53,484 nucleotides of DNA from Acidobacteriota bacterium. GTDB lineage: Bacteria > Acidobacteriota > Aminicenantia > UBA2199. Position numbers and translations under genes: made by a program. Positions 24,011 through 43,761 of this stretch are shown piece after piece. Below the pieces are notes generated by a model that did not search any database, was not told the DNA's origin, and was given only the letters and a program-made list of their open reading frames with translations. Location: positions 1 through 53,484 of the forward strand of contig JALOLC010000008.1 of assembly GCA_025456175.1 (NCBI GenBank), written 5' to 3'. Numbering within the stretch: the first letter of the stretch is position 1; every line of letters starts with the position of its first letter.

Positions 24011-24019
24011 GATCGCGCC

Positions 24020-24683: not shown

Positions 24684-24702
24684 CTTCCCGGTGAGGTGCA
24701 GA

Positions 24703-26856: not shown

Positions 26857-26942
26857 TGACAAGTAACAAGTGACAAGTGACAAGGAAAAATGCAATTTCA
26901 AATGGATGTTCATGTCATTGCGGTTCCTCGTCACTCGTCACT
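26856..26942. repeat. GTGACAA-heptamer hairpin element, copy 1
   Basis: GTGACAA GTAACAA GTGACAA GTGACAA GGAA, then a 36-nt loop, then TTCCTCGTCACTCGTCACT. 17 of 19 stem positions are Watson-Crick. Confidence 0.8.
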
Positions 26943-26949
26943 GAAGAGA

Positions 26950-26978
26950 TTGCCATTCCGGTCCGGCCCGGATAAAAT
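26950..26978 (+). promoter_or_regulatory. sigma70-type promoter
   Basis: TTGCCA (26950-26955), a 17-nt spacer, then TAAAAT (26973-26978). Confidence 0.5.
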
Positions 26979-26997
26979 GATTCCAAGGTAAAGACCT

Positions 26998-27687
26998 ATG
27001 GCCAATTGCCTGAACTGCGGGGCGCCACTGACCGGAACGCTGCTGGTGTGCGATTATTGCAAGACCCGCCAGGATGTTGACCTGGCGGTGGTCCACCGCT
27101 TCACCGTCGAGACGCCCAGGTCGGCTCGGGTCTGCCCGCGCTGCCATATTCCCCTGCAGACCGTCGACCTGAGGCTGAAGGAGAAATTCCTGATCGAGCG
27201 CTGCGAGCGCTGCCTGGGCCTGTTTTTTGATCCCGGCGAGCTGGAGGCTTTCCTGGAGACGGCGGTGACCAACGTCCATGCCATTGATCCCCAGCGACTC
27301 AACGAGGTGCAGAGCGTCAAGCGCAACCACGAGTACCCGGTCAGCTACATCGACTGCCCGGTCTGCCGCCGGCTGATGAACCGCATCAACATCGGCTCGC
27401 GCAGCGGCGTCATCGCCGACCAGTGCCGCAACCACGGCCTCTGGCTCGACGGCGGCGAGTTGCGCCAGATCATGGAGTGGATGAAGGCGGGGGGCGGGCT
27501 GGTGCAGAGGGAGAAGGAGCTGGAAATGGCCAGGCTGGAGCTCGAGCAGGAGAAGAAGAAACTGCAGTTCGGCAGGATCGACCAGGCCTTCTTCCATACC
27601 CGTCCCGAGCCTGAGCGCAGGGACCTCGAACTGGACGTCCTGCCGCTGATCGGCAGATTGCTGAAGCGGATCTTTCGCAGGGAATAA
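26998..27687 (+). CDS. zinc-ribbon (zf-TFIIB-like, two copies) domain protein with coiled-coil tail
   Basis: CLNCGAPL...CDYC, CPRCHIPL...CERCLGLFFDPGELE and CPVCRRLM...CRNHGLWLDGGEL. Confidence 0.6.
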   Translation: MANCLNCGAPLTGTLLVCDYCKTRQDVDLAVVHRFTVETPRSARVCPRCHIPLQTVDLRLKEKFLIERCERCLGLFFDPGELEAFLETAVTNVHAIDPQRLNEVQSVKRNHEYPVSYIDCPVCRRLMNRINIGSRSGVIADQCRNHGLWLDGGELRQIMEWMKAGGGLVQREKELEMARLELEQEKKKLQFGRIDQAFFHTRPEPERRDLELDVLPLIGRLLKRIFRRE

Positions 27688-27709
27688 TTACTTTACAAAA
27701 GGAGGGGGG

Positions 27710-28930: not shown

Positions 28931-28942
28931 AAAGGAAAGGAC

Positions 28943-29043
28943 TCGGTATACGGTGGACGGTTGACGGCGGGCGGCAGCAGCGATCCTCGAACTAGAGCGG
29001 TGAATGGCAATGACCGTAAACCGTGTACCGTAAACCGTAGGCC
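28943..29043. repeat. ACGGTNN-heptamer hairpin element
   Basis: TCGGTAT ACGGTGG ACGGTTG ACGGCGG GCGGCAG faces GACCGTA AACCGTG TACCGTA AACCGTA. 4-5-bp helices are separated by 2x2 mismatches. Confidence 0.65.
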
Positions 29044-29119
29044 AAGCTTTGATGAATCGCGGTATTGATTTTCGGCGGCGTTTGTCCTACCATGGCTCTT
29101 TTCAAGACGGAGGAAGGCC

Positions 29120-29770
29120 TTGAACGTAATCGACCTGACCCGGTTCATCAGCAGGACCATGCCGGTGTTTCCGGGCACCGAGCCGCCGCGCCTGGAAGAG
29201 TCATTCACCATCGAGCGCAACGGCTTTGCCGAGAAAACGCTCCACCTCGTCTCGCATACCGGCACCCACATCGACGCCCCCGGCCATATCCTTCCCGGAG
29301 CCATTCGCCTCGACGGTTTTCCCGCCGGCCGCTTCCTGGGGCCGGGCGTCGTTCTGGACGCCTCGGCCGTACGCGGGCGACATGTTGAAATCGGCGATAT
29401 CGCGGCGGATGAACCACGGCTGCGCCGGGCCGACTTCGCCTTGTTGCACACGGGGTGGGCCAGGCACTGGGGCGCGGCCGAATACTTCGGTTCCTATCCG
29501 GTCCTTGCGCCTGCCGCCGCGCAGTGGCTGGCCGCCATGGAGCTCAAGGGTTTCGGCGTGGACGCCATCTCGGCCGACGAGGTCGAATCGTCCGCCCTGC
29601 CCGTCCACCGGGCGCTGTTCGCCAGGAACATGCTGATCATCGAGAATCTGGCCGACCTGGGGCCATTGCTCGGCAAGGAATTCATCTTCTCCTGCCTGCC
29701 GTTGAAGATCGCCGATGCCGACGGCTCGCCAATAAGGGCAGTGGCTATGCTGGACTTGCTGACGAAGTGA
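29120..29770 (+). CDS. cyclase family protein (kynurenine formamidase-like)
   Basis: HTGTHIDAPGH motif. TTG start lies 6 nt after GGAGG. Confidence 0.75.
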   Translation: MNVIDLTRFISRTMPVFPGTEPPRLEESFTIERNGFAEKTLHLVSHTGTHIDAPGHILPGAIRLDGFPAGRFLGPGVVLDASAVRGRHVEIGDIAADEPRLRRADFALLHTGWARHWGAAEYFGSYPVLAPAAAQWLAAMELKGFGVDAISADEVESSALPVHRALFARNMLIIENLADLGPLLGKEFIFSCLPLKIADADGSPIRAVAMLDLLTK

Positions 29771-29776
29771 CCCGTA

Positions 29777-29872
29777 CTCGGTGTAGGGTGCAAGGTGCAA
29801 GGTGAAGATGCTTATTGGATTTCTTGTCCTGTCTTTCCACCTGGCACCTTCTACCTTACACCCTGTGCCGAG
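29777..29872. repeat. GGTGCAA-heptamer hairpin element
   Basis: GGTGTAG GGTGCAA GGTGCAA GGTGAAG faces GCACCTT CTACCTT ACACCCT. The stem covers 28 positions: 22 WC, 4 G.U, 2 mismatches. Confidence 0.75.
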
Positions 29873-29880
29873 AACGCTGT

Positions 29881-30705
29881 TTACTTCCTGACCCTGCCTC
29901 TGACGTTGCGGATATCGACCTCGCCGCTGCCGGCATCCTCGATGGTGACGTCCTTTTCCACGCCGTCGATTACGATGTTGCCTGAGCCGTCGTCGATCCG
30001 CACCGAGCCGCGGACTCCGCGCAGATCGATCTCGCCGGAGCCGTCGTCAACGACGACGTCGCCGCCGGCGTTCTTCAGCTCGATGTCGCCCGAGCCGTCC
30101 TCGATCTCGACATGGCCGGCAATGTCAGACAGATCCAGGCCGCCGGAACCGTCTTCGATCTCCACCGCGCCCTTGACGTTGGCCAGCCGCAGGTCGCCGG
30201 AGCCGTCCACGATTTTCACCGGACCCGCGATCTCATCCAGCATCGCGTCTCCCGATCCGTCATTCAGGTCCAGGCTCCCGCCCAGGGAATTGATCGTGAC
30301 ATTCCCCGAGCCGTCCTCCACGCTGAGGTTCATGCTGCGCGGCAGGCTGACATCGAGGTCGATGCGGGCTTCCCGGCCGCCGAAAAGCTTGTCCAGGAAG
30401 AATTTCTCATCGATCTTGGCCAGCAGCACGGCTTCGGAGCCGGTCTTTTCGAGCTTCAGTATGACGTTCTCCTTTCTGAATTCCGCAAGCTCGCCCATGC
30501 CGATGCCCTTCACGCGAAGCATGGCAGTGACCTCGATGCGCTGCAGCCCTTCCTTCCCCTGGACTTTCAGGTAGCCGGCCCCGCAATCGATGCGCATGGC
30601 CCTGCAGCCCGACGCATCCAGCGTCAGCGTCTCCCGGCTCTCCGCCGCCTGGACCGTTGCCAGTAAAAACAGGAATATCAGGCAAAATAAAGTCGTTTTC
30701 TTCAT
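29881..30705 (-). CDS. DUF4097-like beta-solenoid repeat protein (putative adhesin), secreted
   Basis: Signal peptide MKKTTLFCLIFLFLLATVQA. About 8 repeats of the form ...V.I.DGSGDI.L... GAGGAGG RBS lies before ATG 30705. Confidence 0.7.
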   Translation of the reverse strand: MKKTTLFCLIFLFLLATVQAAESRETLTLDASGCRAMRIDCGAGYLKVQGKEGLQRIEVTAMLRVKGIGMGELAEFRKENVILKLEKTGSEAVLLAKIDEKFFLDKLFGGREARIDLDVSLPRSMNLSVEDGSGNVTINSLGGSLDLNDGSGDAMLDEIAGPVKIVDGSGDLRLANVKGAVEIEDGSGGLDLSDIAGHVEIEDGSGDIELKNAGGDVVVDDGSGEIDLRGVRGSVRIDDGSGNIVIDGVEKDVTIEDAGSGEVDIRNVRGRVRK

Positions 30706-30812
30706 GGCAGCCTCCTCAATAGTAAACAAACGCATTGGCAAGGCAAAAAGTTCGCCGCCTGCCGCCTATCTTGAACCGGGAACCGTGTTCAGGAGATGCC
30801 CCTGGCAAATCC

Positions 30813-31832
30813 CTAGGTTGAAATCCCCTGCATGCCCGAAAACTTGTCCTTTGCCAGAAGCGACCATGACAGCGCGCCGCAATAGCCGCTCAGCCTGGAT
30901 GCGGCCACGATCGCTTCCGGGGAACGCGACGAATTGCGGGTCGGGAACTCGCCAAGGAGCAGCGGCCGGTCGAGGCCCAGCTCCGCCACCGGCTGTTCCA
31001 GCGGTGCCACGCTATCCCAGCGGTCGTACCAATGCACCTGGTAGAAGTCGAGACCGCAGCCGCGCACCAGGGGCAGGCCGGCGGCGTTGCCCAGGCCGAC
31101 GGTGGCGAGATGATCGCTATGGCGGTGAACCAGGCGGGCCACTCTCCGGATGAAGCGGCGCATGGCCGGGAAGGAGACGGCGGGCCCGATGCTCCCCCCG
31201 CCCCAGCCGCGGGTGGCCCACTCGGGCTCGTTGATGATGTCCCAGGCCAGGATGGCCGCTGAGCGGCCATAGCGCTTCAGGAGCGGGGCGAGCACCCGCC
31301 GGCGCAGGGCCAGCTGCTTGTAGGTGTTGGTGATGACCCTGCTCCTGCCGCCGGTCTGCACGCCGTTGAACATGGAGGCGGAGTCGAACCAGAGGAAATC
31401 GAACAGCACGAAAACCACCTGCATCTCCTCACGGACCACGGCCTCCAGTGCGCAGTCGATGTCGCTGAACAAGCGCTCGTCGGGCCCGAGCGGCGTTCCC
31501 GCCCTGCTGAAGCGGATGCCGGCGCGGCCGTCGCAGAAAAGGAACCAGCGGACGACGCGGGCGCCGCGTTCCCGCAGGGCGCGCAAATGGCGGCGCAGGT
31601 CTTCCTGCTTTCCGGGACTGGCCAGTCCGCCTGCCGGGCTCCAGGCATTGGCGCCGAAGTCGTTGCCGTAGGAGAGCCAGGGGAGGTTGGCTCCCTCGAG
31701 GAAGGGCAGGGGGGCGTCCTGGCCCCTTTTGACCAGGGCGGGAGGGGGCGCCGCCGGCGCACGGAATAGCCTTCTCCAGGCCCGGTAGCAGCGCAGCCGC
31801 AGGATGAAAAAATACTTGAGCAGGACACTCAC
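30813..31832 (-). CDS. glycoside hydrolase, GH5-like TIM barrel (tentative)
   Basis: WDIINEPEW (acid/base NEP) and LLLGEFP (nucleophile-like). GTG start. Confidence 0.5.
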   Translation of the reverse strand: MSVLLKYFFILRLRCYRAWRRLFRAPAAPPPALVKRGQDAPLPFLEGANLPWLSYGNDFGANAWSPAGGLASPGKQEDLRRHLRALRERGARVVRWFLFCDGRAGIRFSRAGTPLGPDERLFSDIDCALEAVVREEMQVVFVLFDFLWFDSASMFNGVQTGGRSRVITNTYKQLALRRRVLAPLLKRYGRSAAILAWDIINEPEWATRGWGGGSIGPAVSFPAMRRFIRRVARLVHRHSDHLATVGLGNAAGLPLVRGCGLDFYQVHWYDRWDSVAPLEQPVAELGLDRPLLLGEFPTRNSSRSPEAIVAASRLSGYCGALSWSLLAKDKFSGMQGIST

Positions 31833-31838
31833 GGCCGC

Positions 31839-31867
31839 ATTGTAGGCGAAGAAGCCGTGGTTATCAA
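31839..31867 (-). promoter_or_regulatory. sigma70-type promoter, leaderless layout
   Basis: Minus strand reads TTGATA (31867-31862), a 17-nt spacer, TACAAT (31844-31839), then 6 nt to GTG 31832. Confidence 0.5.
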
Positions 31868-31876
31868 GAAGCGATT

Positions 31877-31995
31877 CAAGGGAAGAGAGAGGGAAAGCAG
31901 AGGGAAGACAGAGTGAAAGAAAAAGAGGTGTCAGCGGAGCTTTTTTGGGCTCCAGATTCCCTCTCTCGCTTCTGTCTTCCCCTTGTTTCTCTGAG
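31877..31995. repeat. polypurine / polypyrimidine inverted repeat
   Basis: 31878-31928 is 48/51 purine and 31957-31992 is 33/36 pyrimidine. Two perfect 11-bp complementarities: 31885-95 with 31957-67, and 31902-12 with 31971-81. Confidence 0.7.
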
Positions 31996-32009
31996 TATCG
32001 CCTGGATCA

Positions 32010-32038
32010 TTGGTTCCGGACGTGAAGTAAGGTAGAAT
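32010..32038 (+). promoter_or_regulatory. sigma70-type promoter, leaderless layout (M16 gene)
   Basis: TTGGTT (32010-32015), a 17-nt spacer, TAGAAT (32033-32038), then 6 nt to ATG 32045. Confidence 0.5.
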
Positions 32039-32044
32039 GACTTC

Positions 32045-34624
32045 ATGCATATCGATATCCCGTTCCAGAAGTACGTCCTGGAGAACGGCCTGACGCTGAT
32101 CGTCCACGAGGACCGCAAGGCGCCGATCGTGGCCTGCAACGTCTGGTACCATGTCGGCTCGAAGAACGAGAAACCGGGCCGCACCGGCTTCGCCCATCTC
32201 TTCGAGCACCTGATGTTCAACTACTTCGAGAATGTGCCCACGCCCGCCTGCGACCTGGCCTTGTGGCTGGAATCGGACCGCATGGGCCATCTCCAGGGCG
32301 CCGTCAGCCAGGCCAAGCTGGATGAGCAGCGGGGGGTGGTGCAGAACGAGAAGCGCCAGTACGACAACGAGCCCTACAATGTCGCCGAGGAGCTCATCGC
32401 CAAGGCCTGCTTCCCGGCCGGCCATCCCTATTCCTGGACGGTGATCGGCTCCATGGCTGACCTGCAGGCGGCCACCCTGCAGGATGTCCACCAGTGGTTC
32501 GCCACCCATTACGGTCCCAACAATGCCGTGATCGTTATCTGCGGCGACATGGACGCCCAGACGGCACTGGCCAAGGTCAAACGCTATTTCGGCGACATCC
32601 CGCCCGGCCCGCCCGTCGCCCGTTATGAGGCCTGGATCGCCAAGCGCAGCGGCGAGCAGCGGCAAGCGGTGGAGGACCGCGTTCCCCAGGCCCGGATCAT
32701 GAAGATCTGGAACGCGCCCCAGGCCTTCAGCGCCGAGAACGACCAGCTGGGGCTGGCCGCGCAGCTGCTGGGCTCGGGCAAGACCTCGCGCCTGTACAAG
32801 CGCCTGGTCTACGATGACCAGATCGCCACCGACGTGGCGGTCTACGTTGATACGCGGGAGATCGCCGGGCTGTTCACCATCCAGGCCGACGTCAAGCCCG
32901 GGGTGGAGATCGCCGTGGTGGAGCAGGCCATTGATGAGGAGATGAAGCGCTTCCTGGCGTCCGGCCCCCAGCAGAAGGAGCTGGACAAGGTGCGCATGCA
33001 GTGCCTGGCGCGTTTCGTCCGCGGCTGCGAGCGCATTGGCGGCTTCGGCGGCAAGTCGGACATCCTCGCCCGCAGCCAGGTATTCGGCAGCAGCCCCGAC
33101 GCCTACCGCCGCACCCTGGAGAACATCGCAGCGGCCACGCCGGCCTTGATCAGGGAGGCCGCCGTCCGCTGGCTCTCCGACGGCGTCTACGTGCTGGAGA
33201 TCCGCCCTTATCCCGAGCTGGCCGCAGGCCGGGAGACGGTGGACCGCAGCCGCCTGCCCGAACCGGGTCCGGCGCCCGCCGTGCAGTTTCCCGAGTTCCG
33301 GCGCTTCACCCTGGACAACGGCCTGAAGGTCATGCTGGTCGAGCGTCATGCCGTCCCCATGGTCCGCCTGAACCTGGTCCTGGACGCGGGCTTTGCCACC
33401 GACCAGACGGGGATCGCCGGCACGGCCGAGCTGGCCATGGCCATGCTCGACGAGGGGACGACCCGGCGCAGCGCCCTGCAGATCAGCGAGGAGCTGGCAC
33501 TGCTCGGCGCCGGGCTGGGGACTGGCTCCGACCTGGACACCTCCGTGGTGTCGCTCTCCTCGCTGAAGGAGAAGCTCGATGCCGCCCTGGACATCTACGC
33601 CGACGTGATCCTGGACCCGCAGTTCCCGGAAGCCGATTTCCAGCGGCTGTTGAAGCTGCAGATCGCCCAGATCCAGCAGGAAAAGAGCTCGCCGTTCTCC
33701 ATGGCCTTGCGCGTCCTGCCCAGGCTGCTGTACGGATCCGGGCACGCCTACGGTACCCCCTTCAGCGGCACCGGCTACGAGGACTCGCTGGCCAGGCTGA
33801 CCCGCAGGGAGACGGTCGCCTTCCACCAGGCCTGGTTCAAGCCCGACCATGCCACGCTGGTGATTGTGGGCGCGACGACGGTCGGGGAGATGAAGCCCAG
33901 GTTGGAGAGGCTGTTCCAGGGCTGGCGCCCGGGGCCGATCCCGCCGAAGAACATCGCCGCCGTTGTCCCGCGCGCCCGGCCGGCCGTCTACATCATCGAC
34001 AAGCCCGCCTCACCCCAGTCGGTGGTCATCGCCGGCCAGCTGGCGCCTTCCTCGGCCGATCCCGAGCGCATCGCCATGGAGACCATGAACTTCATCCTCG
34101 GCGGCGACTTCGTCTCGCGCTTGAACATGAACATCCGCGAGGAGAAGCACTGGAGCTATGGCGCCGGCTCCTTCTTGTCCGGCGCCCGCGGCCAGCAGCC
34201 GTTCATCGCCTATGCCCCGGTGCAGGGCGACAAGACCCGGGAGACGATGGTGGAAATCCGCAAGGAGCTTGAGGGCATGCTGGGCCAGAAGCCGATCACC
34301 CAGGATGAATTCGCCAATGCCAAGAAAAGCCAGACCCTGCAGCTGCCGGGCTACTGGGAGACAATGGCGGCCGTAGAGGGGTCCCTGGTCGAGATGGTGC
34401 GCTACGGGCTGCCCGATGATTATTACCAGCGCTATCCCCAGCGGGTGCTCCAGCTGCAGGTTGCCGACCTGGACCGCGCCGCGCGCAAGGTCATCCATCC
34501 CGAGAACCTGGTTTGGGTGGTGGTCGGCGATCGGACCCTGATCGAGCCGCCGATTCGCGAACTCGGCTATGGCGAAGTCTTCGTCATCGACAGCGACGGC
34601 CAGCCGTCCAGCAAGCAACAGTGA
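32045..34624 (+). CDS. M16 family (pitrilysin/insulinase) zinc peptidase, fused double-module form
   Basis: HLFEHLMF (HxxEH) inverted zinc motif. 859 aa with two M16 halves. Confidence 0.85.
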   Translation: MHIDIPFQKYVLENGLTLIVHEDRKAPIVACNVWYHVGSKNEKPGRTGFAHLFEHLMFNYFENVPTPACDLALWLESDRMGHLQGAVSQAKLDEQRGVVQNEKRQYDNEPYNVAEELIAKACFPAGHPYSWTVIGSMADLQAATLQDVHQWFATHYGPNNAVIVICGDMDAQTALAKVKRYFGDIPPGPPVARYEAWIAKRSGEQRQAVEDRVPQARIMKIWNAPQAFSAENDQLGLAAQLLGSGKTSRLYKRLVYDDQIATDVAVYVDTREIAGLFTIQADVKPGVEIAVVEQAIDEEMKRFLASGPQQKELDKVRMQCLARFVRGCERIGGFGGKSDILARSQVFGSSPDAYRRTLENIAAATPALIREAAVRWLSDGVYVLEIRPYPELAAGRETVDRSRLPEPGPAPAVQFPEFRRFTLDNGLKVMLVERHAVPMVRLNLVLDAGFATDQTGIAGTAELAMAMLDEGTTRRSALQISEELALLGAGLGTGSDLDTSVVSLSSLKEKLDAALDIYADVILDPQFPEADFQRLLKLQIAQIQQEKSSPFSMALRVLPRLLYGSGHAYGTPFSGTGYEDSLARLTRRETVAFHQAWFKPDHATLVIVGATTVGEMKPRLERLFQGWRPGPIPPKNIAAVVPRARPAVYIIDKPASPQSVVIAGQLAPSSADPERIAMETMNFILGGDFVSRLNMNIREEKHWSYGAGSFLSGARGQQPFIAYAPVQGDKTRETMVEIRKELEGMLGQKPITQDEFANAKKSQTLQLPGYWETMAAVEGSLVEMVRYGLPDDYYQRYPQRVLQLQVADLDRAARKVIHPENLVWVVVGDRTLIEPPIRELGYGEVFVIDSDGQPSSKQQ

Positions 34625-34708
34625 AAAGTAAATGGTGAAAAGAAAGAGGGGCTGAAAGATTTCGGTGAAAATTACCCTGCATTTCACTTTTCACTATTCA
34701 CTTTTCAC
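34621..34708. repeat. GTGAAAA-heptamer hairpin element
   Basis: GTGAAAA GTAAATG GTGAAAA G faces TTTCACT TTTCACT ATTCACT TTTCACC. 22 positions: 20 WC, 1 G.U, 1 A.C. The first GTGA contains the M16 stop. Confidence 0.8.
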
Positions 34709-34765
34709 CAGGCAAATGAACTTATTTCCCCAGGAACTCGTTCATTTAATGAACCAGGAGGCAAC

Positions 34766-35254
34766 ATGACCGATACCAAGGATCTGCGGGCAAGAATGGC
34801 GGCACTGGCCGGTGGGGCCGTACTCGTCCTGCTGGGCGTGCTGTTCCTGCTGAATAATTTCTACCATTTTCTGGACATCCGGCGCACCTGGCCTCTCTTT
34901 ATGCTGATCCCGGTGATCCCCTTGGCCATCCAATGGATTGAGAAGGGCAGGGCCGCGGCCGGGGCCGTGATTCCGATCACGATCCTGACCTTTTATTGCG
35001 GCCATTTCCTGTGGCTGGCCCATTCGTCTTGGGCGGCAGCCGGTACCTCCTGGCCCAACTACCTGATCGGTCCGGGGCTGGGCTTCCTGTTCCTGTTCCT
35101 GATCGAGCGCCGGGCGGGGCTGCTCGTTCCCGCGTTCGTCCTGCTCGGACTGGGCACGGCCTTCTACAGCGGCATTTACGGCAGTTCCCTGCCGCTGGGC
35201 GGGTTTCTGGTGCTGGCCGGTGTTATCCTGGTGATCGGAAGCAGGAAAAGTTAA
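34766..35254 (+). CDS. hypothetical integral membrane protein (4-5 TM)
   Basis: Hydrophobic segments throughout. AGGAGG lies 5 nt before the ATG. Confidence 0.6.
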   Translation: MTDTKDLRARMAALAGGAVLVLLGVLFLLNNFYHFLDIRRTWPLFMLIPVIPLAIQWIEKGRAAAGAVIPITILTFYCGHFLWLAHSSWAAAGTSWPNYLIGPGLGFLFLFLIERRAGLLVPAFVLLGLGTAFYSGIYGSSLPLGGFLVLAGVILVIGSRKS

Positions 35255-35288
35255 GATAAGCGGATTGTCTGCTGCTTGCCAAGAATTG

Positions 35289-35317
35289 TTGTAGACAAAA
35301 AGTTCTTTTTGTATTAT
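35289..35317 (+). promoter_or_regulatory. candidate promoter of structured leader / small ORF
   Basis: TTGTAG (35289-35294), a 17-nt spacer, then TATTAT (35312-35317), preceded by TG. Confidence 0.4.
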
Positions 35318-35323
35318 AGATTG

Positions 35324-35452
35324 GGGGAGTTCTTTGACAGGGATGACTGAGTCATGCAGAACGGTTGAGAGCCCGGCTCGATGAACCCGTGCCAACCTTC
35401 CCGGCGCCCCGCCGGGAAAGGTGGAAACGCCTTTCACCAGGGAGGTGAAGCC
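35324..35452 (+). promoter_or_regulatory. structured 5' leader, unclassified
   Basis: 13-nt palindrome ATGACTGAGTCAT (35343-35355). 9-bp GC hairpin at 35398-35418. 7-bp bulged hairpin at 35420-35438, abutting the SD GGGAGG. Confidence 0.4.
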
Positions 35453-35698
35453 ATGACGGAAGTTACCTTTTTTGAAGATTTTCATTGCTTTGAATATCAC
35501 ACGCCGCAAGGTGCCGCGCAGCGCTTCCGCTATTACCTCTATTCCCCGGTATACGAGCGCATCCCGTTTTTCATCACGATATTAACGCAGGGGGAGTTCG
35601 CTCAGGAAAAAGTGACCTACTCCAGCGATTTTATCCCTTGTAGACTGGCTCGCCACTTGCAGGGCTTGAAGCGAACTGAAGTGACAAGTGAGGAGTGA
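35453..35698 (+). CDS. small hypothetical protein (81 aa), atypical composition
   Basis: GGGAGGTGA RBS lies 4 nt before the ATG. AT-rich third positions, unlike the neighbours. No homology recognised. Confidence 0.4.
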   Translation: MTEVTFFEDFHCFEYHTPQGAAQRFRYYLYSPVYERIPFFITILTQGEFAQEKVTYSSDFIPCRLARHLQGLKRTEVTSEE

Positions 35699-35774
35699 CA
35701 AGTGACAAGAAAGAAAAGGAAAACGGGTGAACGATTGATTTGATGCTGTTCCTCGTCACTGGTTACTTGTCACT
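35680..35774. repeat. GTGACAA-heptamer hairpin element, copy 2
   Basis: GTGACAA GTGAGGA GTGACAA GTGACAA faces GTTCCTCGTCACTGGTTACTTGTCACT. A 10-bp and a 9-bp helix flank a 4x4 internal loop. Confidence 0.8.
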
Positions 35775-37962
35775 ATTCTTGATCCAGAACTTTCCTGATC
35801 ACCTGCAGCATCTCCGGCATGGTGTAGGGCTTGGCCACGAACTCGCGGACGCCGCTGGCCAGGATGGATTCCTTCAGCGCCGCCTCGACGAAGCCCGATA
35901 TCAGGATGATCCTGGTGCCGGGATTGTCGCTGAGGATCGAGCGGCTGACGGCGGCGCCGTTGATCTTGGGCAGATCCATGTCGGTGATGACCAGTTGGAT
36001 GTCGCCGCGATGGCGGCGGTAGCGCTCCAGGGCCTCCAGGCCGTCACGGGCCACCAGGATGTGATAACCATAGTCATGCAGCACCGAGCAAAACAGTTCG
36101 CGGAGGTCTTCCTCGTCCTCGATCACCAGGATGGTCTCGCTGCCGCCGGTAACGGGCGGGGCTTCCTGGCCGCCCTGGGGCGCCAGCAGGTCCTGGCGCT
36201 CCGATGCCGGGAAAAAAAGGGAGAATGAGGAGCCCTTGCCGAGCTGGCTGTCGACCTCGATGAAGCCCTTGTGCGCCTGGACGACCCCGTAGACGACGGC
36301 CAGCCCCAGCCCCGTGCCCCGGCCCCGCCCCTTGGTGGAGAAAAAGGGCTCGAAGATGCGGTCACGGGTCTTCTCATCCATGCCCACCCCGGTGTCGCTG
36401 ACAAAAATGCGGACCAGGCGCTTGCCCGCTGCGGCGGGGAAGCGCGAAGCGATGGCGCTGCCGTCAATCAGGTCAGCGCCGATCTCCAGCCTGCCGGTGC
36501 CGGCCATGGCGTCACGGGCATTGATGCACAGGTTGAGCAGGGCCTGGTGCAGTTGGCTCGGGTCCATCCAGACCGGGGGCAGCTCGCTCGGGCAGGAAAA
36601 GCGGATATCCATGGTGCGGGGAAAGGTGACGCGCAGCATCTTGACCAGTTCGCTGACCATCTCCTGGAGACGCAGGGCGCGGAAATCGGCCTCGGATTTG
36701 CTGGCAAAGGTCAGGATCTGCCTGACCATGGCGCTGCCGCGTTCGGCGGCCTCGTGGATCGTATGCAGCGCGCTTTGCGCCGTGGGCTGGCCCTGCAGCT
36801 TGTCCGCCAGGAGCGCGGCGTGGCCGCTGATGATCGAGATGATGTTGTTGAAATCGTGGGCGATGCCGCCGGCCAGCGTGCCCAGGCTTTCCAGCTTCTG
36901 GTTCTGGCGGATCTCGGCTTCGAGGATGCGGTGCTCCTCCTCACTGCGCTGACGCTCGGAGATGTCGAGGCAGGTCAGCACCCGCACCTCGCGTCCGCGG
37001 TAGGGGATGGTCTTGCTCCGGCTTTCGACCGGTATGATCCTGCCGTCCCGCCCCTTGACCCGGTGCTCAAAGGAAGCGGTCGAATCGGATTGGGCGAGGA
37101 TGATGGCGGCGGATTCCGCTTCCATGAACTCGCTGAGCGGGCGGCCGATGAGCTCGCGGGCCTCGCAGCCGAGCATGCGGGCCAGGATGGAATTGGCGTC
37201 GATGATGACGCCGTTTTCGCTCAGGCACAGCCCTTCGATGGTCGACTCGGCCAGGAGGCGGAAACGCGTCTCGCTCTCGCGCAGCGCCGCTTCGGTCTGC
37301 AGCCGCTCGTCTACCTCGCGCTGCAGCATTTCGTTGCTGGCGCGCAGTTCCCGCTCGTTCCGCCTGGCCAGGGCGATATGGTGCATGAGATCGCTGGCCA
37401 AGAGGCGCACCGGGACGGCGGCCAGCAAAAAGAAAGCCGTGATCGTGAGCAGAGCGAAGATGCTCGTGTCCAAGGGCCTCGACCAGTGGATCCAGCCGTT
37501 GATCTCCAACAGGATGATGGCCACGGCCGAGAGCCAGGACAGCACGACGATGGCCAGGAATTCCTTCGGCCGCAGCAGCAGGCCGCCGCCGGCAATGATC
37601 ACCGGATAGAGCAATGCTCCCAGGTCGTGGATGCCGCCGCCGATGTAGAGCACGATGGAAATGAGGAAGAGCGCGAACAGGAAGGTCAGGAAAATGGCCA
37701 GGCGGACGCGGCCCCGGCGCAGGGGGATCTGCAGCAGCAGGAACACGGCGGCGCCGGCGGCGATCACCGCCGGTTTCCCCGGCTCCCTGGCCGCGAGGGC
37801 GGCGATGGCCGTCAGCCCGATGGCGATGAATCCGAACCAGAGGATCGTGCTCAAGACCTTGGCGAGCCGATCGTTCTCCTCGTCGCCGCAGCGGGGCGGG
37901 GCAAGTACGCCGCCCAGCCATTTCGCCATGCCGGATGCCGGTTTTTCCCTTGTTGTGCCCAT
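35773..37962 (-). CDS. hybrid sensor histidine kinase (TM region, PAS, HisKA, HATPase, C-terminal receiver)
   Basis: H-box IAHDFNN, G-box GTGLGLAVV, receiver ILVIEDEEDL...DMDLPKINGA. About 6 N-terminal TM segments. Confidence 0.85.
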   Translation of the reverse strand: MGTTREKPASGMAKWLGGVLAPPRCGDEENDRLAKVLSTILWFGFIAIGLTAIAALAAREPGKPAVIAAGAAVFLLLQIPLRRGRVRLAIFLTFLFALFLISIVLYIGGGIHDLGALLYPVIIAGGGLLLRPKEFLAIVVLSWLSAVAIILLEINGWIHWSRPLDTSIFALLTITAFFLLAAVPVRLLASDLMHHIALARRNERELRASNEMLQREVDERLQTEAALRESETRFRLLAESTIEGLCLSENGVIIDANSILARMLGCEARELIGRPLSEFMEAESAAIILAQSDSTASFEHRVKGRDGRIIPVESRSKTIPYRGREVRVLTCLDISERQRSEEEHRILEAEIRQNQKLESLGTLAGGIAHDFNNIISIISGHAALLADKLQGQPTAQSALHTIHEAAERGSAMVRQILTFASKSEADFRALRLQEMVSELVKMLRVTFPRTMDIRFSCPSELPPVWMDPSQLHQALLNLCINARDAMAGTGRLEIGADLIDGSAIASRFPAAAGKRLVRIFVSDTGVGMDEKTRDRIFEPFFSTKGRGRGTGLGLAVVYGVVQAHKGFIEVDSQLGKGSSFSLFFPASERQDLLAPQGGQEAPPVTGGSETILVIEDEEDLRELFCSVLHDYGYHILVARDGLEALERYRRHRGDIQLVITDMDLPKINGAAVSRSILSDNPGTRIILISGFVEAALKESILASGVREFVAKPYTMPEMLQVIRKVLDQE

Positions 37963-37995
37963 GTGGGTCGCCTCTGAACATTCAGTGGCCCACCC

Positions 37996-38024
37996 ATTCT
38001 AGAAGCCCGGGAAAGGATTGTCAA
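37996..38024 (-). promoter_or_regulatory. sigma70-type promoter of histidine kinase gene
   Basis: Minus strand reads TTGACA (38024-38019), a 17-nt spacer, then TAGAAT (38001-37996). Confidence 0.6.
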
Positions 38025-38234
38025 CTCGGTCCAAAACGCGGGATGGCGATCAGCGAATCATGGATCTGGCAGCCGGTCGTTTTAAATGGATTGTAACGTC
38101 GGATAGGACAACGCAGCGCAGGATCAATCTTGCCAGGTTGCTCCTAGGCCCCTTTTTTCAATTTGTCTCCGTCCAATCACTTCCGAAGAGCTTCATATGG
38201 AGGAGCCCAGGAGCATATCTCGCCTGGCGCTGAT

Positions 38235-38263
38235 TTGCATTTCGCCTGCATTGTCATTATCAT
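38235..38263 (+). promoter_or_regulatory. sigma70-type promoter of small lipoprotein gene
   Basis: TTGCAT (38235-38240), a 17-nt spacer, then TATCAT (38258-38263). GGAGG RBS lies before ATG 38303. Confidence 0.5.
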
Positions 38264-38302
38264 GGCGATCAGGATACGGCTCAATGCCATCCGGAGGCGG
38301 AA

Positions 38303-38590
38303 ATGAAAAAGTTCATCGTGTTGTTTTTCATTGTCGTTCTGCTGTTTTCGTGCGCTCCCGGGCCGAACCGGCTGGCGAAGACGGCCAATCCCGAGGGGAA
38401 AGTAGCCGGCTTCTGGCAGGGTTTGTGGCACGGCCTGATCGCCCCCATCACGTTCATCGTATCCCTTTTCAGCAGCAAGGTCGCTCTCTATGAAGTGCAC
38501 AACAACGGCGGCTGGTACAATTTCGGTTTCGTGCTGGGCGCCGGGTTGTTCCTCAGCGGCGGCATCCTGGGCCGCAAGAAAAAGAAGTGA
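38303..38590 (+). CDS. small membrane lipoprotein, hypothetical
   Basis: Lipobox LLFSC after the signal peptide, two further hydrophobic segments, and a KKKK tail. Confidence 0.6.
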   Translation: MKKFIVLFFIVVLLFSCAPGPNRLAKTANPEGKVAGFWQGLWHGLIAPITFIVSLFSSKVALYEVHNNGGWYNFGFVLGAGLFLSGGILGRKKKK

Positions 38591-38705
38591 CGAGTGACAA
38601 GTGACGGGGTTTGAACGAACCTTCGTGACGCGTGACAAGGAAGAAAAACGTCTTTATTTCGATCGATGGGTATTTCTCGTCACTCGTTGCTTGTCACTTG
38701 TCACT
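38586..38705. repeat. GTGACAA-heptamer hairpin element, copy 3
   Basis: 38586-38608 pairs with 38683-38705 (19 WC plus 4 G.U over 23 positions). The loop carries an extra CGTGACG CGTGACA AGGAAGAAAAA arm. Confidence 0.8.
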
Positions 38706-38748
38706 GAGATCAGAGATCTTCTTGCAATGAAGTAGAATAAGCGGCGTT

Positions 38749-40212
38749 CTATTTCCTGACCGGGAGCAGCGCCCGCAGTCGCCCCAGGTCCTCCTTCTTC
38801 ACGACGCGCAGGACGAAGAGCAGCGCGACGAATCCTCCCAGCAGGGCGAAGCGGTGCCACGTCTCCAGGCCGACCCGATAATAGAGGAAATAATAGGACA
38901 GGCCGGTGACGGCAACGACGCCCAGGATCTTCGCCAGTTTTCCGTATTCATAGGGGATGGGATAGAATTTCCGCGCAACAAAGTGAAGGCCGGCGGCCAT
39001 GACCAGGTAGCTGGCCAGTACGGCCAGCGCAGCGCCGCTGATGCCCAGGCGCGGGATGAGCAGCAGGTTGGCCAGGACGTTGACCAGGGCCCCGGCGCCG
39101 GTGATCAGCGGGAAATACTTGGTTTTTTCTGCGATATAGAACCCGGCCTGCAGGTTGACGTAGATGCCGTTGAAGAGATAGGCCAGAAGGATGATCGGCA
39201 CCACGACCAATCCGGGGAGGAATTGCCCGGCGATGAGCGAGCGGCCGGGGGCGAACTCCCAGCCGGCGGCAAGGTCGATGAACAGGGAAACGACCAGCCA
39301 CAGCAGGCTCGCTGCCAGGACGAAGAGGGTCATCACCCTGGCGAACATCTCCCGCGCGTTCTTCTCACGGGCATTGTTCAGGAAGAACGGCTGCCAGGCG
39401 TACTGGAACATGGAGACCACCAGCATCATGAAGATGCCGAGCTTGTGGCCGGTCTGGTAGAGCCCAAGCGTATCGGCATCGGTCAGGGCCAGGACGATGG
39501 GACGGTCGATGACCTGGATCATGATCGAAGCCAGGCTGGCGGGGAGGTAGGGGAGGCCGAAGCGCAGCATCCGCCGCAGGAGGGGCCCCTGGATCCTGCG
39601 GCCGAGCCGGGCCCAGGTCTCAGGCAGCAGGGCCAGGAAGGTCGCGGCCGAGGCGATGAGGTTGGCGGCGAAGATGGCCTCGATGCCCATGCGGAACTTG
39701 ACGAAAAAGAGGAGGTTGAGCCCCAGGTTGAGCAGGATGTTGCCCAGCTTGATGAAGGCGAATTTTTTCGCCTTGCGCTCCAGGCGCAGGTTGGCGAAGG
39801 GAATCAGGGCCAGGGTGTCGAAGAGCAGGATGAAGATGGTGTAGTAGACCAAGCGGGCGTATCCGGCGGGGACCTCCATCAGGCCCACGAAGGGATGGCG
39901 CAGCAGCAAGAGCGCCGCGCTCAGAATCAGGGTACTCATGACGACGGCGAGATAGGCGGTGGAAAACGTGATCTTCTTTTCCCCGGGCTCGGCCAGGGAG
40001 CTGTATTTCATGAAGGCGGCGTCCATGCCGTAGATATACACGATATTCAGGAACGCCAGGTAGGCGTAAACGTTGGTATAGATGCCCATGTCCCCGGGCG
40101 AGATGAAATGCGTATAGAAGGGGACGAGCAGGAAGCCGAGAAAGCGGCCGATGATGGTGGAAATGCCGTAGATCGCCGTGTCCCTGCCCAGTTCCTTTAT
40201 CTTTTCAATCAT
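38749..40212 (-). CDS. polysaccharide/oligosaccharide flippase, MOP superfamily (Wzx-like)
   Basis: About 14 TM segments. N-terminus MIEKIKELGRDTAIYGISTIIGRFLGFLLVPFYT is typical of Wzx/PST family proteins. Confidence 0.7.
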   Translation of the reverse strand: MIEKIKELGRDTAIYGISTIIGRFLGFLLVPFYTHFISPGDMGIYTNVYAYLAFLNIVYIYGMDAAFMKYSSLAEPGEKKITFSTAYLAVVMSTLILSAALLLLRHPFVGLMEVPAGYARLVYYTIFILLFDTLALIPFANLRLERKAKKFAFIKLGNILLNLGLNLLFFVKFRMGIEAIFAANLIASAATFLALLPETWARLGRRIQGPLLRRMLRFGLPYLPASLASIMIQVIDRPIVLALTDADTLGLYQTGHKLGIFMMLVVSMFQYAWQPFFLNNAREKNAREMFARVMTLFVLAASLLWLVVSLFIDLAAGWEFAPGRSLIAGQFLPGLVVVPIILLAYLFNGIYVNLQAGFYIAEKTKYFPLITGAGALVNVLANLLLIPRLGISGAALAVLASYLVMAAGLHFVARKFYPIPYEYGKLAKILGVVAVTGLSYYFLYYRVGLETWHRFALLGGFVALLFVLRVVKKEDLGRLRALLPVRK

Positions 40213-41372: not shown

Positions 41373-41401
41373 ATGATATGATAATCTGCCCGGCAAGTCA
41401 A
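41373..41401 (-). promoter_or_regulatory. sigma70-type promoter, leaderless layout (AAA ATPase)
   Basis: Minus strand reads TTGACT (41401-41396), a 17-nt spacer, TATCAT (41378-41373), then 6 nt to ATG 41366. Confidence 0.55.
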
Positions 41402-41451
41402 ATTATCTGCGATAATCCGCCCATCAAGACAAATTATCCGCGATATGCCGG
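41380..41451. repeat. 2.3 tandem copies of a 31-bp unit rich in GATAAT/ATTATC hexamers
   Basis: Unit 1 is GATAATCTGCCCGGCAAGTCAAATTATCTGC (41380-41410). Unit 2 is GATAATCCGCCCATCAAGACAAATTATCCGC (41411-41441), 26/31 identical. A partial third unit follows. Confidence 0.75.
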
Positions 41452-41566
41452 CTTTCATTATTTGTTTTGTTTTTTGCATACCTCTTTTTTGTATTTGAGT
41501 TGTCCTTATTTTTTGGTTTTATGCGATCAGGTAGGGCCGCGGTTGTCGCGCCTCATATGCTGTCTT

Positions 41567-41595
41567 TTGACATCTATGCAGAAATCGGTTATAAA
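41567..41595 (+). promoter_or_regulatory. sigma70-type promoter of glnN
   Basis: TTGACA (41567-41572), a 17-nt spacer, then TATAAA (41590-41595). The leader opens with a 7-bp hairpin GATTTCG/CGAAATC. Confidence 0.6.
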
Positions 41596-41673
41596 ACGAT
41601 TTCGACTCGCCGAAATCCTAGAAGATTGTCGTGGGGAAAACCGCAGAAATTTAATTGGGATAGGGAAGGAAAA

Positions 41674-43761
41674 ATGAACGAAAAGTTTGCCAGCCATGTG
41701 TTTGGCCTGGAGAAACTGCAACAGACCCTGCCGCCGCAGATTTTCAAAAAGTTCAACCGTACGGTCGACCAGAAAAAAACTCTCGATGCCGACGTGGCGG
41801 AAGCGGTGGCCCATGCGATCAAAAAGTGGGCCGAGCATCTGGGTGTCACCCATTTTACGCATTGGTTCATGCCGTTGACCGGATTGACCGCCGGCAAGCA
41901 GAATACCTTCCTGGAATGGGAGGGTAACCGCAAGATCATTTCCTGTTTTTCCGGGCGCGACCTGATCAAGGGGGAGCCGGATGCTTCGTCATTCCCGCAC
42001 GGCGGTATGCGCTCGACCTTTGAGGCCCGCGGCTACACGGCCTGGGATCCCTGTTCTCCGGTCTTCGCGGTCAAAAGCCGCAAGAATTGCGTCCTCTTCA
42101 TCCCCTCGGTCTTTTATGGTTACAATGGTTGTGTTTTGGATAAAAAAACACCGCTGCTGCGTTCGTTGCGGTTGATCAATGATATTTCGCTTACTATACT
42201 CACCAAGTTCAACCTGCGGGCCCAATGGGTGAAAAACATGGTCGGCGCCGAGCAGGAGTTTTTTCTGATCTATGAAAAGGACTACCAGCAACGTCCCGAC
42301 CTGAAAACCGTCGGCCGGCTGATTTTCGGCGCCCGACCCCCAAGGGGGCAGCAGATGGGCGACCATTATTTTGGCGCCATTCCCGAAGCGGTGCTGCACT
42401 TCCTCGAGGATGTGGAGGAAGAGGCTTTGAACCTGGGCATTCCGGTTAAAACCCGCCATAACGAGGTGGCTCCCAACCAATTTGAAATTGCTCCACTTTA
42501 CGAGGAAGCCAACATCGCCGCCGATCATAACCAGTTGTTAATGGACCTGTTGATTCGTATCGCCCGTAATCATGGCATGGTCTGTTTGTTGCATGAGAAG
42601 CCCTTTGCTTTTTTTAATGGCAGCGGCAAACACATTAACTGGTCGTTAATGGATAGTCAGGGACGGAACTTGTTCACTCCTGGCGATAATAAAAACTCAC
42701 GGCTGGTATTTTTGAGTTTTTTAGCCGGGTTTATCTGCGGTATGAACCGCTATCATGATCTGTTGCAGGCGGTGCTGGCTTCCCCAGGAAACGAGCTGCG
42801 TTTGGGTGGCCATGAAGCGCCCCCGGCCATCATTTCTATCTTTTTGGGCGATGAATTGCAAGGAGTGATCGATGATCCCCAGGCCTTCATTACCGGTAGA
42901 TTTCGTAAATCGAAAATGGTACGCTTCGAAGAATTCGTGCCGGCGATTCTCCATGATCTCTCTGACCGCAACCGTACTTCACCCGTGGCATTTACCGGCA
43001 ACAAGTTCGAGTTTCGGATGCCCGGATCATCGGCTTCAATGGCTTTTCCGATCTCTGTGATCAATCTGCTTGTAGCCGCCGGTTTGACGGAAGTATACAA
43101 GGCCATAGAGAAGACTCGGGACGAAAAGGCGTTGGTTCATAAACTGCAGCATATCATCAGGGAAAACTCGGGTATAATTTTTGCCGGAGATAACTATAAC
43201 TCAGATTGGCATAGGGAAGCCCGCCGGCGGGGGTTGTTCATTCCGGTTTCGGTACCTGAGACGGTTGACCGTTTGCAGGAAGAAAAAAACATACGTTTGT
43301 TCGAAACATTCGACATACTTTCACGGGAAGAGATCAAGGCTAGAGCCGATATCAAGATCGAAATCTATGTCAAAACCGTGGAAATGGAATTGCGTGTCGC
43401 CCGTAATCTTTTGCGTGTCTATATTATTCCGGCGGCGCTTAAGAACCAAGCTATGCTTCTCGAAGCGATCCGCAAGTTTCCCCGGGAAATTCTGGCCAAG
43501 AAGCCGGCCATGCTAAAAAAGCAGCTTGCTTTCATCGCCAAATTCACTGAAAAGATCAACCGGTCAATGGAAATGGTATCTTTGCTGGATGAGGATAATG
43601 ACAAACTGAAAGAAGGAGATGATCGCACGCGAGCTCAATTTTGCACCAAGTTCATCCGGCCGCATTTGGCAGATGCGGCTATCCTGGTGGAGAAGATCGA
43701 AGAACGGGTGGACCGTGATTTCTGGAAGCTGCCGCGGGTGACCGACATCCTGTTCAGATAA
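41674..43761 (+). CDS. glnN: glutamine synthetase type III
   Basis: 695 aa with KTRHNEVAPNQFEIAP, NGSGKHINWS and LGGHEAPPAIIS motifs. GGAAGGA RBS. Low GC. Confidence 0.85.
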   Translation: MNEKFASHVFGLEKLQQTLPPQIFKKFNRTVDQKKTLDADVAEAVAHAIKKWAEHLGVTHFTHWFMPLTGLTAGKQNTFLEWEGNRKIISCFSGRDLIKGEPDASSFPHGGMRSTFEARGYTAWDPCSPVFAVKSRKNCVLFIPSVFYGYNGCVLDKKTPLLRSLRLINDISLTILTKFNLRAQWVKNMVGAEQEFFLIYEKDYQQRPDLKTVGRLIFGARPPRGQQMGDHYFGAIPEAVLHFLEDVEEEALNLGIPVKTRHNEVAPNQFEIAPLYEEANIAADHNQLLMDLLIRIARNHGMVCLLHEKPFAFFNGSGKHINWSLMDSQGRNLFTPGDNKNSRLVFLSFLAGFICGMNRYHDLLQAVLASPGNELRLGGHEAPPAIISIFLGDELQGVIDDPQAFITGRFRKSKMVRFEEFVPAILHDLSDRNRTSPVAFTGNKFEFRMPGSSASMAFPISVINLLVAAGLTEVYKAIEKTRDEKALVHKLQHIIRENSGIIFAGDNYNSDWHREARRRGLFIPVSVPETVDRLQEEKNIRLFETFDILSREEIKARADIKIEIYVKTVEMELRVARNLLRVYIIPAALKNQAMLLEAIRKFPREILAKKPAMLKKQLAFIAKFTEKINRSMEMVSLLDEDNDKLKEGDDRTRAQFCTKFIRPHLADAAILVEKIEERVDRDFWKLPRVTDILFR

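Follow-up and report, generated by a model that had tools for sequence, protein, structure and literature searches.

A tandem-heptad palindrome between convergent genes of an Acidobacteriota bacterium, a member of a fast-changing repeat family and a candidate bidirectional 3′-end hairpin

We analysed a 95-bp palindromic element at positions 35680-35774 of a 53,484-nucleotide (nt) stretch of DNA from an Acidobacteriota bacterium of the lineage Aminicenantia; UBA2199 (contig JALOLC010000008.1 of assembly GCA_025456175.1; the whole stretch is hereafter called the window), where it lies between a small open reading frame (ORF) and a convergent hybrid histidine kinase gene. This focal element is one copy of a dispersed, fast-changing family of extragenic palindromes with tandem AGTGACR arms, and the stop codons found in its arms are a generic by-product of a 7-nt unit that contains TGA, hence a trait of the family. 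We favour, with a probability of roughly 55%, the interpretation that the element is a 3′-end hairpin, that is, a non-canonical bidirectional terminator-insulator between the two convergent genes, built from a labile repeat family. A first-pass annotation of this DNA had proposed here a bidirectional terminator whose folding depends on translation reaching the stop codons; the terminator is retained below in a qualified form, and the dependence on translation is argued against.

The element and the two genes that it separates are the following.

35680 to 35709, plus strand: left arm, AGTGACA AGTGAGG AGTGACA AGTGACA AG, with four TGA triplets at 7-nt spacing that cover three frames
35710 to 35746, no strand assigned: spacer or loop, with a purine-rich 5′ end, AAAGAAAAGGAAAAC, and a 3′ piece, GATGCTG, that continues into the right arm as GATGCTGTTYCTCGTCAC
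35747 to 35774, plus strand: right arm, TGTTCCT CGTCACT GGTTACT TGTCACT
35453 to 35698, plus strand: small ORF of 81 codons plus the stop TGA (35696-35698), a conserved small protein with no function assigned
35773 to 37962, minus strand: hybrid histidine kinase with PAS, HisKA, HATPase_c and receiver domains, ending in TAG (35775-35773) and convergent with the small ORF

Read on the minus strand, the right arm (35747-35774) becomes AGTGACA AGTAACC AGTGACG AGGAACA, and the final two bases of this arm belong to the kinase TAG. An inverted-repeat search returned arms of 28 nt each (35680-35707 and 35747-35774), 79% complementary and 39 nt apart, and Tandem Repeats Finder (TRF) gave a period of 7 with 4.4 copies at 35679-35709. 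The details that the first-pass annotation had taken from the letters held on inspection. The TGA triplets at 35682, 35689, 35696 and 35703 are all read directly from the sequence, and the third (35696-35698) is the stop of the 81-codon ORF at 35453-35698, whose 81-aa product agrees with a public gene call; the kinase, on the minus strand, ends in TAG at 35775-35773 and is followed by TGACAAGTAACCAGTGACGAGG; positions 35680-35689 are the exact reverse complement of 35765-35774, and 35694-35702 pairs with 35752-35760 with one A.C mismatch. Its further statement that the element contains both stop codons is accurate for the TGA of the small ORF, which lies inside, and only partly so for the kinase TAG, of which two of the three bases fall in the arm. 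The motif GTGACAAGTGA, with at most one mismatch, was matched 12 times in the window against 0.41 expected, a number that none of 100 shuffled sequences reached.

The predicted folding energy was -31.3 kcal/mol on the plus strand (z -2.2) and -30.0 kcal/mol on the minus strand (z -3.2), and on each strand 2 of 200 shuffles folded as well; by this measure the focal hairpin is predicted to be moderately more stable than shuffled sequence. The pairing register given by the first-pass annotation dominates on minus-strand RNA (P about 1.0) and reaches P of only about 0.08 on plus-strand RNA, where the predicted stem joins 35694-35706 with 35762-35774 (P about 0.9). More than one pairing register is open to the tandem arms. 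No Rfam model matched the element at its gathering score, and the sole match at E ≤ 10 was a chance hit to a miRNA precursor model (13.5 bits, E = 7.2).

In order to sample the family beyond the window, the 15-mer GTGACAAGTGACAAG was scanned in one genome per species, which gave at least 120 loci. Among the matches listed, Pyrinomonadaceae and Blastocatellia were dominant, and Clostridia, Verrucomicrobiota, Planctomycetota, Chloroflexota, Bacteroidota, Armatimonadota and Terriglobia were also present; an inverted array stood within 160 nt of the array in 47 of 120 loci, the architecture was (AGTGACR)n...(YGTCACT)n and the commonest array length was 3-4 units. Compared by tblastn, proteins of the window found only distant matches among the 120 loci. 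Some copies are perfect palindromes (L030, 34/34; L060, 30/30; L numbers denote loci of the comparison set). A second heptad family, GTGAATC, is nested in the loop of many Pyrinomonadaceae copies, and the form (GTGAATC)n...(GATTCAC)n inside the loop of a (GTGACRA)n palindrome was seen in L015, L041, L044, L046, L065 and L080. These nested palindromes suggest either that one hairpin element was inserted into another or that the structures grew stepwise. The same 15-mer gave 96 loci in IMG/VR, mostly single matches, with an inverted partner in 15 of 96, a smaller share than the 47 of 120 of the genome sample; some viral contigs therefore do carry the elements. A viral origin was considered and set aside, the exact paired pattern having 0 matches in IMG/VR.

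The position of the stop codons follows from the unit itself. Since every unit carries TGA and the period of 7 shifts the frame by one (7 mod 3 = 1), at least three units provide stops in all three frames, and the opposite strand receives them likewise from an inverted array. A gene that adjoins or enters such an element consequently ends within the first three heptads, which is why the focal copy holds the stops of both convergent genes. Stop-to-arm offsets were collected at the gene ends that face an arm in about 55 family members, with crude ORF and strand calls. At about half of these ends the stop is inside the array or overlaps it, at offsets of -1/-2, -5, -12 and -19; the offsets -5, -12 and -19 correspond to the TGA of heptads 1, 2 and 3 and occur in similar numbers, and those of -1 or -2 are mostly a TAG fused to the first AG. 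A further third or so have the stop 1-8 nt before the array, and offsets from -19 to +8 nt cover about 85% of the arm-facing ends. The presence of both stops in the arms had been taken as the sign of a special translation-gated switch, a view that loses its force when about half of the arm-facing ends across the family show the same arrangement. An effect of the heptads on a protein end is seen directly in the small ORF (MTEVTFFEDFHCFEYHTPQGAAQRFRYYLYSPVYERIP...). Its product has 43 homologues, most of them 71-72 aa, and no Pfam match, and the window copy ends in about 10 additional, non-conserved residues, GLKRTEVTSEE, the last five codons of which are made up of heptad sequence, so that a 71-72-aa protein has become one of 81 aa by reading into the array. 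The elements thus alter protein C-termini (71 to 81 aa here).

According to the interpretation that we favour, RNA made from either side would fold, immediately past the stop codon, into a hairpin of about -30 to -36 kcal/mol. This hairpin would define and protect the mRNA 3′ end and would serve as a pause or termination site or as a block to exonucleases, and the long stem might also be a substrate of RNase III; each of the convergent transcripts would be kept from running antisense into the other gene. Across the family, A makes up 41% of the 10 nt that precede the left arm and T 39% of the 10 nt that follow the right arm, against a background of about 20%; this pattern, A-rich upstream and T-rich downstream, is characteristic of bidirectional terminators. 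A consensus scan of 24000-40000 for canonical terminators also speaks for such a role, as its 14 sites against 12.9 in shuffled sequence are at chance level. At least one gene end faces an arm in 48 of 55 family members, and 7 of 55 lie between divergent genes, as far as crude strand calls go. Stem-loops mark 3′ ends in both Rho-independent and Rho-dependent termination across bacterial clades (PMC13613805). The bidirectional terminator of the first-pass annotation is supported in so far as a long hairpin sits exactly between the convergent stops and the family has the A/T flanks, and it fails as a canonical intrinsic terminator.

Several observations weigh against this interpretation. None of the 14 canonical sites of the scan lay at the focal element or at any heptad palindrome, a canonical terminator being defined by a stem of 5-15 bp rich in GC, a 3-8-nt loop and five or more U among the 8 nt that directly follow the stem. 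The focal copy has no good U-tract, as the sequence after the stem is AUUCUUGAUC on the plus strand and UUCAGUUCGC on the minus strand, and the tails compared with the canonical definition are AUUCUUGA (plus) and UUCAGUUC (minus); the loop is 39 nt long and the stem imperfect (79%). Among 36 oriented family members, G.U mismatches on the sense strand were not in excess over A.C (45 vs 42), and complementarity was 86% in register compared with 82% after a 7-nt shift. The lack of a G.U excess together with the small advantage of the true register means that there is no RNA-specific covariation signal. A heptad pair of the window (pair E, below) sits between divergent genes, and presence or absence of elements at the strain level shows that individual copies are dispensable. 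Finally, in Blastocatellia the next ATG often follows the arm by just 3-26 nt; strong termination would be harmful there, so such copies must allow read-through, and their role may be attenuation, provision of an RNase III or stability site, or translational coupling through the hairpin.

At a number of Blastocatellia and Pyrinomonadaceae loci (e.g. L037 at 6196-6215, L046, L048, L080 and L097) the palindrome makes up the whole intercistronic spacer. The downstream ATG is found there 3-26 nt past the right arm, often in a U-rich context such as CTGTTCTTATG or CTGCTCTTATG, without a Shine-Dalgarno sequence. A right-arm promoter driving the downstream gene in Blastocatellia was examined by eye and rejected, as there was no -10-like hexamer at the right spacing.

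Within 12 kb of the window there are four GTGA-type copies, the focal one (copy C) included, and within 15 kb these four are joined by four palindromes of other units. The positions of the other seven are given here.

26855 to 26942, no strand assigned: sister copy A, a GTGACAA palindrome; the stop TAG of the upstream ORF (26854-26856) overlaps heptad 1
34620 to 34709, no strand assigned: sister copy B, a GTGAAAA variant; heptad 1 contains the stop TGA of the M16 peptidase (34622-34624)
38586 to 38705, no strand assigned: sister copy D; the stop TGA (38588-38590) of a 95-aa ORF is the TGA of heptad 1
24425 to 24635, no strand assigned: pair E, two ACGGTNN arrays in inverted orientation with about 145 nt between them, located between divergent genes
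28944 to 29040, no strand assigned: palindrome F, ACGGTNN heptads, after an OmpA-family gene
29780 to 29868, no strand assigned: palindrome G, GGTGCAA-type heptads, between convergent genes
31879 to 31995, no strand assigned: palindrome H, with arms of 11-nt units, GGGAAGAGAGA

In copies A, B and D, as in the focal copy, the stop of the upstream gene is therefore in heptad 1 or overlaps it. TRF found the sister arrays at 26855, 34682, 38586 and 38679 to be likewise of period 7, and the spacers of the three sister copies measure 44-78 nt. The 11-nt unit family of palindrome H also occurs in the relative L125, between OmpA and cyclase genes. Strong promoter-like sites directly follow the right arms of copy A (26950-26978, 10/12 matches) and of pair E, a placement that speaks for a terminator-like role. 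Elsewhere in the window, the stop of ClpA is followed (21664-21719, minus strand) by a canonical GC-rich hairpin, GGGCGGTTCGCGAACCGCTCC, whose tail is T-rich and ahead of which stand three TTTCGCC heptads; the organism hence does use ordinary terminators at some genes.

The orthologous locus was then compared in more distant relatives. The gene order of the window (M16 peptidase, LiaF-like protein, small ORF, convergent kinase, 95-99-aa ORF) is found again in L122, L123 and L127, L125 shares the core of small ORF and kinase, and the L128 contig ends before the kinase. A repeat array follows the small ORF in all five of these relatives (L122, L123, L125, L127 and L128), and a repeat-armed palindrome does so in L122, L123 and L127; in the stretch read, no inverted partner was evident for the arrays of L125 and L128. 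This occupancy of the gap counts in favour of a role at the 3′ end. The elements of L122 and L127 consist of GTGACRA units and have the loop-to-arm piece GATGCTGTTYCTCGTCAC in common with the window, which makes them true orthologues of the focal element. The same gap holds GTTCGAN units in L123, and AGACGTT and other arrays in L125 and L128. The stop of the small ORF is inside the array only in the window lineage and L122, and lies 3 to about 30 nt upstream of it in L123, L125, L127 and L128; the kinase stop is in the arm or fused to it in the window, L122 and L127, adjoins the arm in L123 and is about 18 nt away in L125. As the stop position shifts among orthologues, a stop in the arm is not a conserved design feature.

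Intergenic regions densely filled with tandem heptad arrays of five or more kinds were noted at 4217-4726 of L128 (also in L131 and L132) and at 1590-2000 and 7164-7527 of L125; the units include CGTGATT, AGACGTT, CGTGACG, CTGACAC and AAATTCC, the last paired with an inverted GGAATTT. Non-orthologous loci share a composite block of 150-385 nt at 77-87% identity, and a composite (AAATTCC)n element, loop included, is present at non-orthologous sites in L125 and L128, showing that whole elements do disperse. Among L128-L133, several metagenome contigs with the small ORF end about 450-510 nt past it, in or just after a cluster of heptad arrays. Heptad repeats may break short-read assemblies.

At the strain level we compared L134, L135 and L136, whose flanking DNA is 96-98.5% identical to the window. 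Elements A and C were identical between the window and the compared strains, A being identical in L136. Copy D carries in the window 38 nt more than in L134/L135, flanked by GTGACG direct repeats, and the TGA stop of the ORF is kept in both forms. At sites E to H, compared between strains 98.5% identical in the flanks, L136 differed: palindrome F is missing, with a distance of 13 nt from the stop to the next ATG; a GTGACAA/GTGACGA palindrome stands at site G in place of the GGTGCAA units, and the cyclase there runs two heptads into the array and ends in ...ASDK*; pair E is replaced by unrelated sequence without heptads; and only the left array of palindrome H is found. The replaced tracts take in a few strongly diverged flanking codons, which indicates allelic recombination and not fresh insertion. 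The family would change through heptad slippage, homologous recombination between alleles and the dispersal of whole elements, routes that are in part documented by these comparisons. The elements turn over between strains while the site stays occupied, and the family is not conserved as a fixed regulatory sequence.

Ahead of the small ORF lies one more feature that bears on the alternatives.

35349 to 35459, plus strand: S-adenosylmethionine (SAM) SAM-I riboswitch aptamer, RF00162, 57.7 bits

The Shine-Dalgarno sequence of the small ORF falls in the 3′ strand of aptamer helix P4 and its AUG (35453) in the 3′ strand of P1. This layout predicts a translational OFF switch, and translation of the small ORF should be conditional because the aptamer sequesters both signals. 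The aptamer reaches the gathering score in L122 and L127 and stays below it in L123, L125 and L128.

The element could alternatively be a translation-gated bidirectional terminator, in which termination would occur only when no ribosome is on the in-arm stop and translation reaching the stop would set the level of read-through; translation of the small ORF would itself be set by the riboswitch. Leader-peptide attenuators offer a precedent, since the choice of hairpin is decided there by the position of the ribosome at a stop codon, and the efficiency of terminators is known to vary with the stop-to-hairpin distance. Besides the conditional translation expected from the aptamer, the location of both stops in or at the arms is compatible with this model, and so is the result of blocking a 30-nt footprint at either stop, which in silico abolished the main stem and raised the folding energy from -36.1 to -17.8 kcal/mol in one case and from -33.1 to -15.2 kcal/mol in the other; in physical terms the idea is reasonable. 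The fold left after blocking, however, is a weak unrelated structure (-17.8 and -15.2 kcal/mol) with no alternative helix and no evident anti-terminator, and the U-tracts are weak. The composition of the heptad alone explains the stops in the arms, which occur in about half of the family and at every frame offset, and neither the stop position (3 to about 30 nt upstream in L123, L125, L127 and L128) nor the C-terminal tail reaching the array is conserved. Folding that depends on translation is for these reasons not supported as a selected design, and we regard gating of this kind at the focal element as quite improbable.

A different possibility, rather unlikely in our judgement, is that the element is a selfish or mutationally generated palindromic repeat without a selected function at this site, the arrays arising and spreading by slippage, fold-back template switching, recombination or some mobilising enzyme, and being tolerated at gene ends because they supply all-frame stops in both orientations. 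The turnover described above fits such a repeat: strains of 96-98.5% identity differ by an indel, by presence or absence and by replacement of the heptad family, the same orthologous gap holds different heptads in relatives, the GTGAATC family is nested in loops, composite elements move with their loops to non-orthologous loci, some copies (L030, L060) are perfect palindromes, and an asymmetry of G.U and A.C is absent. Heptanucleotide repeats are, moreover, the most abundant long simple repeats of prokaryotes, an abundance attributed to polymerase slippage (Mrazek and co-workers, as reported in PMC4679880). Against it stands the small ORF-kinase gap, which has an array in every relative examined and a palindrome in most of them, suggesting that the site needs such a structure; the strand-asymmetric A- and T-rich flanks and the depletion between divergent genes also count against it, and the diverged codons at the replaced tracts speak for allelic recombination in place of fresh insertion. 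Neither a transposase nor a target-site duplication nor a complete parent element was detected: no transposase was present among the window ORFs scanned with Pfam and NCBIfam (a subset of the ORFs), and no target-site duplication was consistent, the only direct-repeat-flanked change being the 38-nt indel inside the array of copy D. A transposon parent suspected in L001 was discarded, as the genes flanked by its arrays, which lie about 2 kb from each other, are ordinary ones and every array is part of a small hairpin of its own. The opposite-strand tandem heptads could also act at the level of DNA, bound by a nucleoid or global regulator of the IHF/HU type or by gyrase; paired repeats of Geobacter metallireducens have been proposed as such sites (PMC2700814), the mismatches show no RNA-strand asymmetry, and one pair of the window (E) lies between divergent promoters. 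This we consider very unlikely, given that at least four unrelated units (GTGACAA/GTGAAAA, ACGGTNN, GGTGCAA and the 11-mer) occur within 15 kb and that orthologous sites, and even strains, have different units, which is hard to fit to one sequence-specific protein; a tight association with stop codons and an A/T asymmetry of the flanks are likewise not expected of a nucleoid-protein site. A joint scheme, in which the AGTGACR palindromes are a foldback mobile family spreading horizontally across phyla and at this locus act as a ribosome-gated bidirectional terminator, appears distinctly improbable. The arms could in that case have evolved their all-frame, both-orientation stops so as to land on gene 3′ ends and re-terminate them, and SAM-controlled translation of the small ORF could open the hairpin and allow antisense transcription into the kinase gene; if so, the SAM level would be coupled to kinase expression.

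Three further observations concern the remainder of the window. A 138-nt in-frame stretch of the M16 peptidase gene (33675-33812) is absent from the public contig L121 (JAOQIB010004198.1 of GCA_025490975.1), which is elsewhere 99.96-100% identical, and may be an assembly difference or a strain indel. At 41380-41445, directly upstream of a 764-aa glutamine-synthetase-like gene (41467-43761), there are two and a bit tandem 31-nt units, each with palindromic half-sites GATAAT-N16-ATTATC, which by their sequence look like a duplicated operator. The region 2366-4732 encodes an HdrA-like protein fused to an MvhD/VhuD-like domain, a fusion typical of anaerobes, in sequence of 63% GC; this HdrA-MvhD fusion and the hydrocarbon metagenome source of one relative (ERZ922796) suggest that the organism is an uncultured anaerobe.

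The 3′-end hairpin that we favour for the focal element can be compared with extragenic palindromes and shared terminators of other bacteria. The REP, BIME and REPIN sequences of Enterobacteria and Pseudomonas are extragenic palindromes present in large numbers at the 3′ ends of genes and between cistrons, and their copies vary by strain; in RNA, REP hairpins stabilise the upstream mRNA and can attenuate transcription, and a REP within about 15 nt of the stop reportedly affects the terminating ribosome (a result ascribed to Liang, Rudd and Deutscher in 2015). A REP, though, consists of one imperfect palindrome, 20-40 nt long and headed by a conserved GTAG, and is mobilised by RAYT transposases, whereas the arms described here are tandem AGTGACR heptads without a GTAG head, and no RAYT was found among the subset of ORFs scanned. 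In bidirectional intrinsic terminators, known for example from SEnd-seq of E. coli, one hairpin common to two convergent genes has an A-tract upstream and a T-tract downstream, and the canonical ones combine a short GC-rich stem with a loop of 3-8 nt and a clear U-tract. The focal copy resembles them in its shared hairpin, and its family in the A/T tracts; it differs in its weak U-tracts, its 39-nt loop and a stem that is AU-rich, imperfect and at most about 28 nt long. If palindromes of this kind are the working terminators or 3′-end hairpins in lineages without canonical terminators, terminator predictors and operon calls need to take them into account.

In structure, the closest relatives are paired inverted heptamers reported from other bacteria. 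Those of Xanthomonas (GGGAATC) and Nostoc (GGGGAYT) were described by Rehm et al. (2015; PMC4692102). In Xanthomonas, arrays of 4 units are preferred and 70-75 inverted pairs are found per genome; they are intergenic, lie within 50 nt of a stop or overlap it, are depleted between divergent ORFs and are transcribed, with transcript starts and stops commoner than at control repeats (PMC4692102), which is in line with a terminator-like role of the present family. The elements of the window share with the Xanthomonas type the 7-nt unit, the array of about 4, the close facing arrays on opposite strands, the position at stops and the scarcity between divergent ORFs. They are unlike it in that its G-rich unit has been read as G-quadruplex-forming, while GTGACAA cannot form a G-quadruplex and carries a stop codon, and in that several unit families coexist here in one genome and strain-level turnover is documented. 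In Geobacter metallireducens, the Gmet_I classes 1-3 (24, 21 and 8 pairs) consist of opposite-strand tandem octa- or heptanucleotide repeats, which were called putative sites for a global regulator (IHF/HU) and some of which have insertion sequences at fixed distances (Aklujkar et al., 2009; PMC2700814). The likeness extends to tandem units of 7-9 nt, 3-5 per array, in opposite-strand pairs with variable spacing and in several classes per genome; Gmet_I repeats have tens of copies per genome, and the class 3 unit, MTYCTGA, also contains TGA. The unit sequences are otherwise different, no relation to stop codons is reported for Gmet_I, and insertion sequences at fixed distances were not seen here. 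The cyanobacterial STRR heptamers and the TAACTGA direct repeats of Beggiatoaceae, Cyanobacteria and Bacteroidetes (MacGregor, 2015; PMC4679880) are again intergenic tandem heptanucleotides with a patchy distribution across phyla, and TAACTGA in forward orientation has stops in three frames, so that repeats overlapping ORFs are necessarily at ORF ends (PMC4679880). Unlike the palindromes studied here, the TAACTGA repeats are mainly direct arrays just upstream of start codons, with one inverted example in a Maribeggiatoa genome, and binding of a post-transcriptional regulator was proposed for them in place of a hairpin. Tandem 7-nt repeats have thus been read so far in three ways, as G-quadruplex, as IHF/HU site and as regulator-binding repeat. 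The class to which the focal element belongs is already described, in the paired inverted heptamer arrays near stops of Xanthomonas, with the Geobacter pairs close to it and STRR, TAACTGA and REP as functional analogues; the present analysis adds the rule for the stop codons, the occurrence of one unit in many phyla and the turnover between strains, and what seemed a one-off regulatory curiosity becomes an instance of a general, poorly understood class.

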